A stretch of 4,871 bases of DNA from a virus (lineage: Duplodnaviria; Heunggongvirae; Uroviricota; Caudoviricetes). Shown here in pieces: positions 22 through 4,484 of the stretch. Below the pieces are notes generated by a model. That model searched no databases, had not been told where the DNA came from, and saw only the letters and a list, made by a program, of their open reading frames with translations. Where the stretch lies: positions 1 to 4,871 of IMG/VR virus record IMGVR_UViG_2636415477_000008; one strand, 5' to 3'. Positions within the stretch are counted from its first letter, which is position 1, and each line of letters begins with the position of its first letter. The position numbers and the translations under genes were made by a program.

Positions 22-55
22 TTGGGTACTACAGTATCAGTCAGGGTGCTATATT
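22..55 (+). promoter_or_regulatory. Candidate promoter with extended -10 (TGcTATATT at 47-55); possible pR'-like late promoter
   Basis: TG at 47-48, one spacer base, then TATATT at 50-55 (5/6 match to TATAAT). No good -35: TTGGGT at 22-27 is 22 bp upstream. A strong intrinsic terminator lies about 125 nt downstream, resembling the lambda pR'-tR' short-transcript layout. Motif match only. Confidence 0.25.
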
Positions 56-181
56 TTCAGATGTGATGAAAGCCTGTCAGCAGGCAGGGCGTATCGGAAA
101 TGACCCAGTAGAGAAAACGTTGACTCAGATACCGGTGCTGAGTTACCGGGAAACCGGCATCACATGACCGCTATCCTTCCA

Positions 182-208
182 GGCCCATCCGCTCCGGTGG
201 GCCTTTTT
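182..208 (+). terminator. Rho-independent terminator (tR'-like)
   Basis: GGCCCA(T)CCG ctc CGGTGGGCC: 9-bp GC-rich stem with one bulged T and a 3-nt loop, followed by TTTTT (204-208). Confidence 0.55.
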
Positions 209-262
209 ACTGCAGAAAACAGGTTCCCCGTTAAATGCTATGTTGCTCACAATTCAGTAAGT

Positions 263-278
263 TGACAGTTGCCTGTCA
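263..278. repeat. Perfect inverted repeat TGACAG-ttgc-CTGTCA
   Basis: 6-bp arms with 4-bp spacer; a TTGACA hexamer (262-267) overlaps the left arm. Operator-like dyad or RNA hairpin. Confidence 0.3.
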
Positions 279-454
279 GACTGGGCATTTGTTAAAAAAA
301 TTTCGCATGGTGAATCCCCCTGAGCGGAGGGGCGACTGGTGACGGTATAATCTCTGATTATCAAAACGAGAATGACGCGGGTTTAGTGGCACCGGGCTGA
401 ACTCACCGGGAGGCACCCGGCACCATGTTCATGGTGATACAGAAATGCGGCTTC

Positions 455-479
455 AGCCCCTCTCCGGAGGGGCTTTCTT
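455..479 (+). terminator. Rho-independent terminator
   Basis: AGCCCCTC tccg GAGGGGCT: 8-bp stem, 4-nt loop, followed by the T-rich run TTTCTT. Confidence 0.55.
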
Positions 480-485
480 ATGGAC

Positions 486-513
486 AAAAAAGCCCGCGCT
501 GGGAGACGCGGGC
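486..513 (-). terminator. Rho-independent terminator oriented for the minus strand
   Basis: GCCCGCG ctgggaga CGCGGGC (492-513): 7-bp stem preceded on the + strand by AAAAAA (486-491), so the minus-strand transcript has hairpin then U6. It sits back-to-back with the + terminator at 455-479. Confidence 0.4.
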
Positions 514-581: not shown

Positions 582-604
582 CTGCGCAACTGCGCGGCCT
601 TTTT
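582..604 (+). terminator. Rho-independent terminator
   Basis: CTGCGC aact GCGCGG: 6-bp stem including one G-U pair, 4-nt loop, then CC and TTTTT (600-604). Confidence 0.45.
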
Positions 605-3640: not shown

Positions 3641-4276
3641 ATGAATAAACAATACAAACTGGTTGTTAAAGGGATAAATAATTACCCGGATAAGATTACT
3701 GTTACTGTGGCACTGGAAATTGGTGGGTATCCGTCACTGTTGTTGCCAAATGTGGCGATTAGTCTTGACCGTACTGAAGGTGCCACGCTGGAATTTTACG
3801 AAGCTGAGGCGAAAAAACAGGCGAAGCAGTTTTTCATGGATATTGCTGCCGCTTTATGTGAAGGGGATGAGCAGTCGCCGGAAAAGCGCCCCATAATTTT
3901 AGAGGCGCAGGATGTGTTGATAACCTACAGAGGAAAACTACCGGGAATAATTACTGGTTCTCTGAAGACGCCACCGACGGCATTGCGGTCAGAAAACGAT
4001 GATATTGAATCACGCATTGAAAAACTGGAGTGCTATATCGCTGAATTGAAAAAAAGCATCCCAACAAAAAATGAGGTGCTTGCAGCAGATGAAATGAAAG
4101 AAACTATTCTTGATCGCGCGGCGCATCTAAGCTGCGCTTCACGGTTGAAAGAGCATCTTCAGCGGCCTGAAGAAAAACGCCGCGATGAGCAGTTCGCGGC
4201 GTTTTACGATTATTGCATTGAAGTTACTCGCAGGAATTTTGTGAAGGCTTTTGAGGAGAGTAAATCTCTTCAGTAA
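3641..4276 (+). CDS. Hypothetical soluble protein (211 aa) inserted between holin and endolysin; function unknown
   Basis: ATG at 3641, only 4 nt after the holin stop (TAA 3634-3636), with a purine-rich SD GGGGAGAG (3626-3633). Stop TAA at 4274-4276. No TM segment; beta-rich N-terminal half and charged helical C-terminal half (NDDIESRIEKLECYIAELKK...). Visibly more A/T-rich than the flanking genes. I do not recognise the family. Confidence 0.65.
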   Translation: MNKQYKLVVKGINNYPDKITVTVALEIGGYPSLLLPNVAISLDRTEGATLEFYEAEAKKQAKQFFMDIAAALCEGDEQSPEKRPIILEAQDVLITYRGKLPGIITGSLKTPPTALRSENDDIESRIEKLECYIAELKKSIPTKNEVLAADEMKETILDRAAHLSCASRLKEHLQRPEEKRRDEQFAAFYDYCIEVTRRNFVKAFEESKSLQ

Positions 4277-4484
4277 GCTTAATGGCGGACGCTGCAATTA
4301 ATTCAGGAAGGTCCGCAAGGTCATCTGTCAGTGGGAATGATGAAAAATCGGCGGCAGTTCTGTTAAGAATTGCTTTAACTAATTCCTTTTCCTCATCCGG
4401 CAACACGTTGATTAGAGCTACGACTGCTTGCCTGAGTGCGATTAAATCAGCAAAAGTTTGTTTTGGTAGATTTGGATAATCCAT
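4224..4484 (-). CDS. Hypothetical small acidic protein (86 aa), convergent with and 3'-overlapping the 211-aa ORF
   Basis: Minus-strand ATG at 4484-4482 preceded by GAGGTG about 4 nt upstream. Product starts MDYPNLPKQTFADLIALRQAVVALINVLPDEEKE...; stop TAA is the complement of 4224-4226. An alternative upstream ATG (4556-4554) lacks an SD. The protein is more plausible than the antisense + ORF 4282-4479, which is Ser/Ala-rich. Overlaps the 3' end of the 211-aa gene by 53 bp. Confidence 0.4.
   Translation of the reverse strand: MDYPNLPKQTFADLIALRQAVVALINVLPDEEKELVKAILNRTAADFSSFPLTDDLADLPELIAASAIKLTEEIYSPQKPSQNSCE

Follow-up and report, generated by a model that had tools for sequence, protein, structure and literature searches.

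STnc100-family and EcOnc08/21-type RNA genes very probably form a convergent pair in the late-region moron slot of a lambdoid prophage

Using Hfq-CRAC, Tree et al. (2014; PMC4104026) described convergent sRNA dyads in the moron slot 3′ of PR′ in eight Sakai prophages (Sp3, 4, 5, 9, 10, 11, 15 and 17), an arrangement restated in a review (PMC7873438). In Sp5 the pair consists of EcOnc27 on the plus strand and EcOnc02, now known as AsxR, on the minus strand. On Northern blots EcOnc27 appears as species of ~235 and 247 nt, and the 247-nt form is destabilised in the absence of hfq (PMC4104026). EcOnc27 is the sRNA103 of EDL933, overexpression of which raises fimZ and espA transcripts, and these are the sole effects reported for RNAs of the STnc100 type. 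In bacterial genome annotation, few sRNAs are recorded more often than STnc100. Eleven copies are transcribed in EDL933, one of which was confirmed by Northern blot; a copy located 75 nt downstream of stx2 has been detected in outer membrane vesicles, and HUS prediction draws on SNPs in the stx2-downstream copy, among other features. The EPEC sRNAs PasD1 and PasD2, which a 2026 preprint relates to STnc100, are 172–173 nt in length by RNA-seq and Northern blot, start with GCATGGTGAATCC, and have been validated by RIL-seq. A second EPEC sRNA detected by RIL-seq, E2348C_1409.E2348C_1408.IGR, is equated by its authors with EcOnc08/21/42 of EHEC. Its RIL-seq targets in EPEC include the cfa 5′UTR (767 chimeras), the dppA 5′UTR (197), tir and emrA, and targets of its CCUUGCC seed share the motif GGCAAGG/GGCAGGG.

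We analysed a 4,871-nt stretch of viral DNA, referred to as the window, in which an earlier note had proposed a candidate small structured RNA between a TATAAT hexamer and a back-to-back pair of terminators, with noncoding RNA on one or both strands. RNA genes are in fact present on both. With high confidence, we read the interval as two known, convergent and independently terminated regulatory RNA genes, an STnc100-family gene on the plus strand and an EcOnc08/21-type gene on the minus strand. The covariance-model search that the note had suggested was decisive. Positions 276–485 (+) match STnc100 (RF02076) with 165.6 bits (gathering score 47, E = 1.8e-38), and the match is full length, covering model positions 1–206 of 206. 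This segment belongs to the STnc100 family, and one GenBank phage record annotates STnc100 at the homologous position; the feature is already catalogued in Rfam and in the literature, and is not a new candidate. Our reading draws on family membership, homology, conserved structure and genomic context in the window, and what we say of transcription, Hfq binding and targets is carried over from published work on homologues. By analogy with EcOnc27/sRNA103, EcOnc05/06 and PasD1/2, the plus-strand RNA would be an Hfq-associated, trans-acting sRNA, and we infer the expression, seed and targets of this copy from the same comparison.

A genome identical to the window over positions 1–720 places the region in the late region of a lambdoid prophage. 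The gene order there is Q antiterminator, tRNA-Ile, tRNA-Arg, tRNA-Arg, the sRNA region and an esterase of the SASA/DUF6645 type, followed 3′ of the esterase by DUF1378, DUF826, holin and lysozyme genes, and the proteins encoded by the window itself give a matching picture. The gene thus lies 3′ of Q and the tRNAs and 5′ of the esterase and lysis genes, as STnc100 genes of this late-region context do. Positions 247–720 are collinear with the segment of Sakai Sp5 that extends from stx2B to the nanS-p-like gene, in which Rfam detects STnc100 (207.7 bits, +) abutting AsxR (88.1 bits, −). Since no stx gene is present at the window locus, and given this collinearity with the Sp5 STnc100/AsxR segment, the window represents an stx-less version of a well-studied locus. 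In the proposed arrangement, the interval singled out by the earlier note would hold the 3′ halves of both sRNA genes, in a moron slot with the order Q, three tRNAs, sRNAs, NanS-p-like esterase, holin and endolysin. Further downstream, at 3641–4484, two genes are inserted between holin and endolysin: one encodes a 211-aa DUF1327 protein (+), and the other is a convergent ORF of ~86 aa (−) that matched nothing in Pfam or PADLOC. The genome that is exact over 1–720 lacks this insertion, and the window therefore comes from a different mosaic.

The plus-strand RNA begins with a conserved, structured 5′ domain of ~124 nt (305–428), delimited by helix pairing and by the PasD 5′ end, which aligns to position 305. 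It comprises P1 (305–312/421–428), P2 (317–321/328–332), a variable P3 (347–352/356–361), P4 (379–386/397–404) and P5 (406–410/416–420). These helices were evaluated in a MAFFT alignment of 28 distinct 5′ domains, a sample consisting mostly of closely related enterobacterial prophages from IMG/VR contigs and E. coli. Helix cells were paired in 96.8% of cases, as compared with 37–49% when the partners were slid, and none of 500 shuffles reached the observed values on four of five covariation measures. Ten pairs have changed on both sides, in P1, P2 and P4, with many of the double-sided changes in P1 and P2 coming from one divergent sequence, the copy at 37–210 of the window. P5 never varies and so is neither supported nor contradicted, and P3 is specific to individual variants. 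Matches from a scan of genome contigs with a 15-base pattern, GCATGGTGAATCCNCC, were chance occurrences in unrelated phyla, and these loci (L006–L125) were set aside. The STnc100 consensus helices thus have comparative support, with P5 uninformative, and the covariation analysis proposed for homologous prophages upholds P1, P2, P4 and a pseudoknot.

The pseudoknot joins the linker that follows P2 to the loop of P4. In the window, CUGGUG (336–341) is complementary to CACCGG (390–395), and the corresponding segments are complementary in all 28 sequences, over 6–9 bp and in six sequence classes: CUGGUG/CACCGG, as in the window; AUCAGC/GCUGAU; AAUGAC/GUCAUU; CUGGCU/AGCCAG; AAUGAUC/GAUCAUU, as in PasD; and UAUCGG/CCGGUG, as in the 37–210 copy. 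A 1-nt indel in the linker shifts the register of the MAFFT alignment, and column-wise counting was for this reason replaced by our own comparison of duplex energies, which ignores phylogeny; cognate duplexes average −10.1 kcal/mol and non-cognate duplexes −3.2 kcal/mol (sd 2.2). These sequence comparisons indicate a co-varying pseudoknot between 336–341 and 390–395. It appears neither in the Rfam consensus structure line nor in the 2026 preprint.

Most of the small motifs that had drawn attention to the interval find their place in this architecture. GGCACC occurs at 388, 412 and 419, as had been described, and nowhere else on the plus strand of the 4,871 nt. The first occurrence contains the pseudoknot's 3′ strand, the second forms the P5 loop and 3′ stem, and the third falls at the P5/P1 junction, which accounts for all three. 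The CCGGG/CCCGG hairpin (406–410 with 416–420) pairs as predicted and corresponds to P5. The second hairpin is present as CCCCCTGAGCGGAGGGG, and its resemblance to the terminator stem holds, both having the form CCCCU...GGAGGGG; it spans 316–332, one base more at the 3′ end than had been reported. Repeats and hairpins alike belong to a conserved 5′ domain made up of several helices, and not to a ~100-nt RNA. Single-sequence folding energies are unexceptional for both full-length RNAs (z −1.3 and −0.6), and the minimum-energy fold of the plus-strand RNA exchanges most of P1 for a competing hairpin between 421–426 and 431–436. The 3′ strand of P1, CACCAUG (421–427), can pair instead with CAUGGUG (430–436) downstream, and folding suggests that this hairpin may be an alternative conformation of this tail variant.

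The RNA probably has its 5′ end between ~248 and 305 and its 3′ end at ~479–481. Length estimates for the family disagree, falling at 172–187 nt or at 222–247 nt. The RNA-seq-defined 5′ end of PasD1/2 aligns to window position 305. Northern sizes of ~222 nt for EcOnc05 (Sp4) and ~235/247 nt for EcOnc27 (Sp5) correspond to 5′ ends near window 248–250, since the distance from CACAATTCAG to the terminator is 214 nt in Sp4, for a Northern size of 222 nt, and 232 nt in Sp5, for one of 235 nt. The intervening region, 248–298 (+), is a conserved block and a candidate promoter or 5′ leader that is kept in most upstream contexts. It contains CACAATTCAG at 248–257, TTGACA at 262–267 and TTTGTTAAAA at 288–297, and the pattern CACAATTCAG...TTGAC(A/T)...TTTGTTAAAA is kept in most copies; the Northern sizes fit a 5′ end near CACAAT. 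TTGACA has no acceptable −10 at a spacing of 16–18 bp, and several candidate promoter elements consequently remain for the plus-strand family. From its sequence, the conserved TGTTAAAAA (290–298) would suit an extended −10 for a start at G305, and TGcTATGTT (235–243) would suit a start near 250.

Downstream of P1, family sequences diverge completely. In the window, the conserved domain is followed by a variable 3′ tail, UCAUGGUGAUACAGAAAUGCGGCUUC (429–454), and then by an intrinsic terminator with a stem-loop at 455–474 and the tail UUUCUUAU, T-rich to about 481, in agreement with the plus-strand terminator already noted. Among 118 copies (117 from viral contigs, plus the window), 21 different tails are joined to the common 5′ domain. 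One internal-domain variant was seen with 7 different tails, and tails are common to different pseudoknot classes. These comparative data support a conserved 5′ domain to which exchangeable seed/terminator tails are attached on the 3′ side. In PasD the seed, UGUGAG, occupies the position equivalent to 429–454, and the Hfq-CRAC peak of EcOnc27 spans the 3′ ~75 nt; for these reasons we presume, by analogy with homologues, that 429–454 serves as the seed region of this copy. The plus-strand RNA would then consist of a pseudoknotted 5′ domain (305–428), a single-stranded tail (429–454) carrying the target-pairing seed just upstream of the terminator, and the terminator itself (455–481). Terminators are more abundant here than expected by chance, with 7 terminator-like sites in positions 1–760 as against 0.7 expected from shuffles, an approximately tenfold enrichment.

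On the opposite strand, the sequence from 666 to 486 and the EPEC RNA E2348C_1409.E2348C_1408.IGR (NC_011601 1444797–1444978, −) share 93.9% identity across 181 nt, and the homology covers the RNA body including seed and terminator. The minus-strand terminator (486–513) has its stem at 513–492 and a run of T residues at 491–486, as had been noted. Directly 5′ of the stem is the seed CCUUGCC (514–520), identical to that of EPEC. The gene is convergent with the STnc100-type gene, and upstream of and antisense to the esterase gene. The proposal that the back-to-back terminators mark the 3′ ends of converging transcripts is supported by the STnc100 match on one strand and the EcOnc08/21-type homologue on the other. 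By homology, the minus-strand RNA would end at the 492–513 hairpin and present its seed at 520 to 514. We assign it to 486–666, with an uncertain 5′ end at about 666–678 or further upstream. A promoter-like ATGTCA-17-GATAAT at 713–685 (−) would give an RNA of ~193 nt, and length estimates for the family again disagree (182 nt by RNA-seq, ~271 nt by Northern blot). The Sp4 Hfq peaks EcOnc08 and EcOnc21, which are convergent with EcOnc05, correspond to window positions ~486–558 and ~564–649. Convergent minus-strand partners of two recognised types accompany 51 of the 118 copies: 31 have the type found in the window and 20 the AsxR/AgvB type, with 64 having neither.

Compared with the named systems, the plus-strand RNA has the same 5′ domain, orientation and intrinsic terminator as EcOnc27/sRNA103 (Sp5, downstream of stx2B), EcOnc05 (Sp4) and EcOnc06 (Sp17). 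It occupies the same slot, after tRNA or stx genes and before a nanS-p-like esterase, and likewise faces a convergent partner on the opposite strand; the probe sequences for EcOnc05 and EcOnc06 map inside the STnc100 5′ domain. In contrast to these RNAs, the window copy has its own P3, which includes TATAAT, and its own tail, found in 3 of 118 copies including the window, and its targets, if any, need not equal those of sRNA103. PasD1 and PasD2 share its architecture and first 26 nt and keep P1, P2, P4 and the pseudoknot, but lack P5 and have a different tail, with the seed UGUGAG, which does not occur in 276–485. Only patches of 29 and 22 nt align between the window and PasD by BLAST, and PasD is a relative, not the same sRNA. 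At this level of comparison, neither 37–210 nor 276–485 is PasD itself.

The minus-strand RNA resembles EcOnc08, EcOnc21 and EcOnc42 in its identical CCUUGCC seed, its terminator and its antisense position relative to the esterase upstream region, and it differs from the EPEC IGR sRNA by a few substitutions, one of them in the terminator loop (CCCAG versus CCCUG). This RNA is absent from Rfam and unnamed. The anti-sRNAs AsxR (RF02703) and AgvB (RF02702), both Hfq-bound, occupy the same slot and strand and are also convergent with an STnc100-type sRNA. Their models gave no hit at E ≤ 10 on the window minus strand and detected the true AsxR of Sp5 (88.1 bits). Unlike AsxR and AgvB, the window RNA does not have the conserved ~42-nt 3′ region GCCCGAACCCACUCGGGC, the aligned segment being divergent, and its homologues are ~180–270 nt in length versus 51–60 nt. 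An AsxR/AgvB assignment was rejected on these grounds: no Rfam hit, a different 3′ region, and homologues three to five times longer.

The most direct alternative follows from the original proposal of an RNA of about 100 nt running from the TATAAT to the terminator. It would take TATAAT (346–351) as the promoter of an RNA of ~125 nt, terminated at 455–479, either as the main product or as an additional short form confined to this variant. The hexamer is a perfect −10 and 358–481 folds well alone (z −3.1), but the good fold reflects P4, P5 and the terminator and does not show a start there. As had been conceded, no convincing −35 accompanies the hexamer; there is also no TG extension, the preceding bases being CGG, and a promoter scan gave no call. 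Although this is the sole TATAAT in the window, by our own arithmetic a given hexamer is expected ~2.4 times on both strands of a 4.9-kb window, so its occurrence carries no statistical weight. The hexamer lies inside the RNA, in the P3 segment, which is hypervariable among the 117 viral-contig copies (69 unique); of 34 unique internal variants a single one has it, corresponding to 8 of 117 loci, and it is absent from the Sp5 homologue. In the window it forms one arm of a perfect 6-bp, variant-specific hairpin, AUAAUC (347–352) with GAUUAU (356–361). The Rfam match starts at 276, and the 5′ ends of homologues lie at or upstream of the equivalent of position 305, at least 41 nt upstream of the hexamer. 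Finally, TATAAT is located within the covariation-supported P1 and between the strands of the pseudoknot, and a transcript initiating from it would lack half of the conserved domain. The sequence is not a conserved promoter and has none of the attributes expected of a sigma-70 promoter for this RNA (a −35 or TG element, conservation, or a position upstream of mapped 5′ ends). We rejected it as the promoter, and consider an RNA initiating there very unlikely.

Could the interval instead act only in cis, as a bidirectional terminator or insulator with conserved recombination sequences between morons, its RNAs having no trans role? The element does sit at moron junctions and is strongly mosaic, and the literature offers no validated direct target for an STnc100-type RNA. 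Against this, helices P1, P2 and P4 and also the pseudoknot have changed in a compensatory manner, which indicates selection on RNA structure and not on DNA alone; homologues are abundant, discrete and Hfq-bound, some being Hfq-dependent for stability; and the minus-strand homologue forms hundreds of Hfq-mediated chimeras with particular mRNAs via a shared motif. We regard a purely cis-acting boundary as unlikely. Protein coding is highly improbable. A 68-aa ORF (383–589, −) and a 35-aa ORF (425–532, +) exist, and hypothetical CDSs have been annotated at homologous positions in some genomes, but the 68-aa ORF has no Pfam family and extends through the terminator on the minus strand as well as the one on the plus strand. 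Conservation tracks the RNA helices, not codons, and RefSeq annotates nothing here in the identical genome. A decayed tRNA origin, a possibility raised in the earlier note itself, would here point to the adjacent phage genes ileZ/argN/argO, and we can virtually dismiss it. The element follows directly on the tRNA cluster, its closing stem around several hairpins is loosely cloverleaf-like, and in Sp5 the STnc100 model scores weakly over argO (18.9 bits, E 0.93). However, ARAGORN found no tRNA even with permissive settings. Of nine local alignments to ileZ/argN/argO, eight scored at shuffle level, among them all those of the window's 5′ domain and of the divergent copy (z −0.8 to 0.3), and the ninth, of the major-type domain with ileZ, reached z 2.9, a value that the best shuffle exceeded. 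Neither a T-loop nor a D-loop consensus is present, and Rfam gives STnc100, not tRNA.

The STnc100-family gene at 276–485 is one member of a tandem array. Upstream, at 37–210 (+), is a divergent paralogue of STnc100 architecture with its own terminator at 181–204 followed by a T-run. It scores 30.1 bits with the STnc100 model, below the gathering score, and keeps P1, P2, P4 and P5 through compensatory changes, along with the pseudoknot UAUCGG/CCGGUG (−6.3 kcal/mol). Standard annotation would miss this copy. In the identical genome, another full STnc100 copy (141 bits; L001 8793–8998) ends just before window position 1, which makes a tandem array of three family members after the three phage tRNA genes. 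Several viral contigs have two copies ~470 nt apart. In the literature searched, we found no mention of the pseudoknot or of a tandem array with a diverged isostructural copy.

Two other elements were observed nearby. A hairpin resembling a terminator, CTGCGCAACTGCGCGG with CCTTTTTCG after it, occupies 582–604 (+) and shares 87% identity with the terminator of PasD1. It is kept in Sp4 and Sp5, is antisense to the minus-strand sRNA, lies ~100 nt upstream of the esterase start, and may represent what is left of a PasD-type tail, or an additional 3′ end. Immediately 3′ of the esterase stop codon, at ~2701–2785 (−), is a strong intrinsic terminator, GCCAGC...GCTGGCGG followed by eight Ts, preceded by a weak Esr41 match (23.3 bits, gathering score 102) with TTGACA-17-TTAAAA upstream. 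To judge from these motifs, it looks like a small-RNA candidate in the slot of EPEC PasA/PasC; BLAST ruled out PasA itself.

As the feature belongs to a catalogued family, the main value of the locus is as a positive control for sequence-only RNA detection. Our additions are modest, namely the pseudoknot, the scaffold-plus-tail modularity, and the tandem array with its divergent isostructural copy. In recent work, variation in the Sp5 copy downstream of stx2a has been linked statistically to HUS outcome, and this lends some practical interest to structural detail in the family, including the pseudoknot, the modular tails and the two partner classes. We offer, as a tentative suggestion, that the near-invariant, pseudoknotted 5′ domain of STnc100/PasD-type RNAs might function as a module by itself, perhaps as a platform for a phage or host protein, or as a processing or stability signal; prophages would recombine it with swappable 3′ seed/terminator cassettes and antisense partners. 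If so, these RNAs would make up a "scaffold plus swappable seed" system, and not just a collection of ordinary sRNAs.
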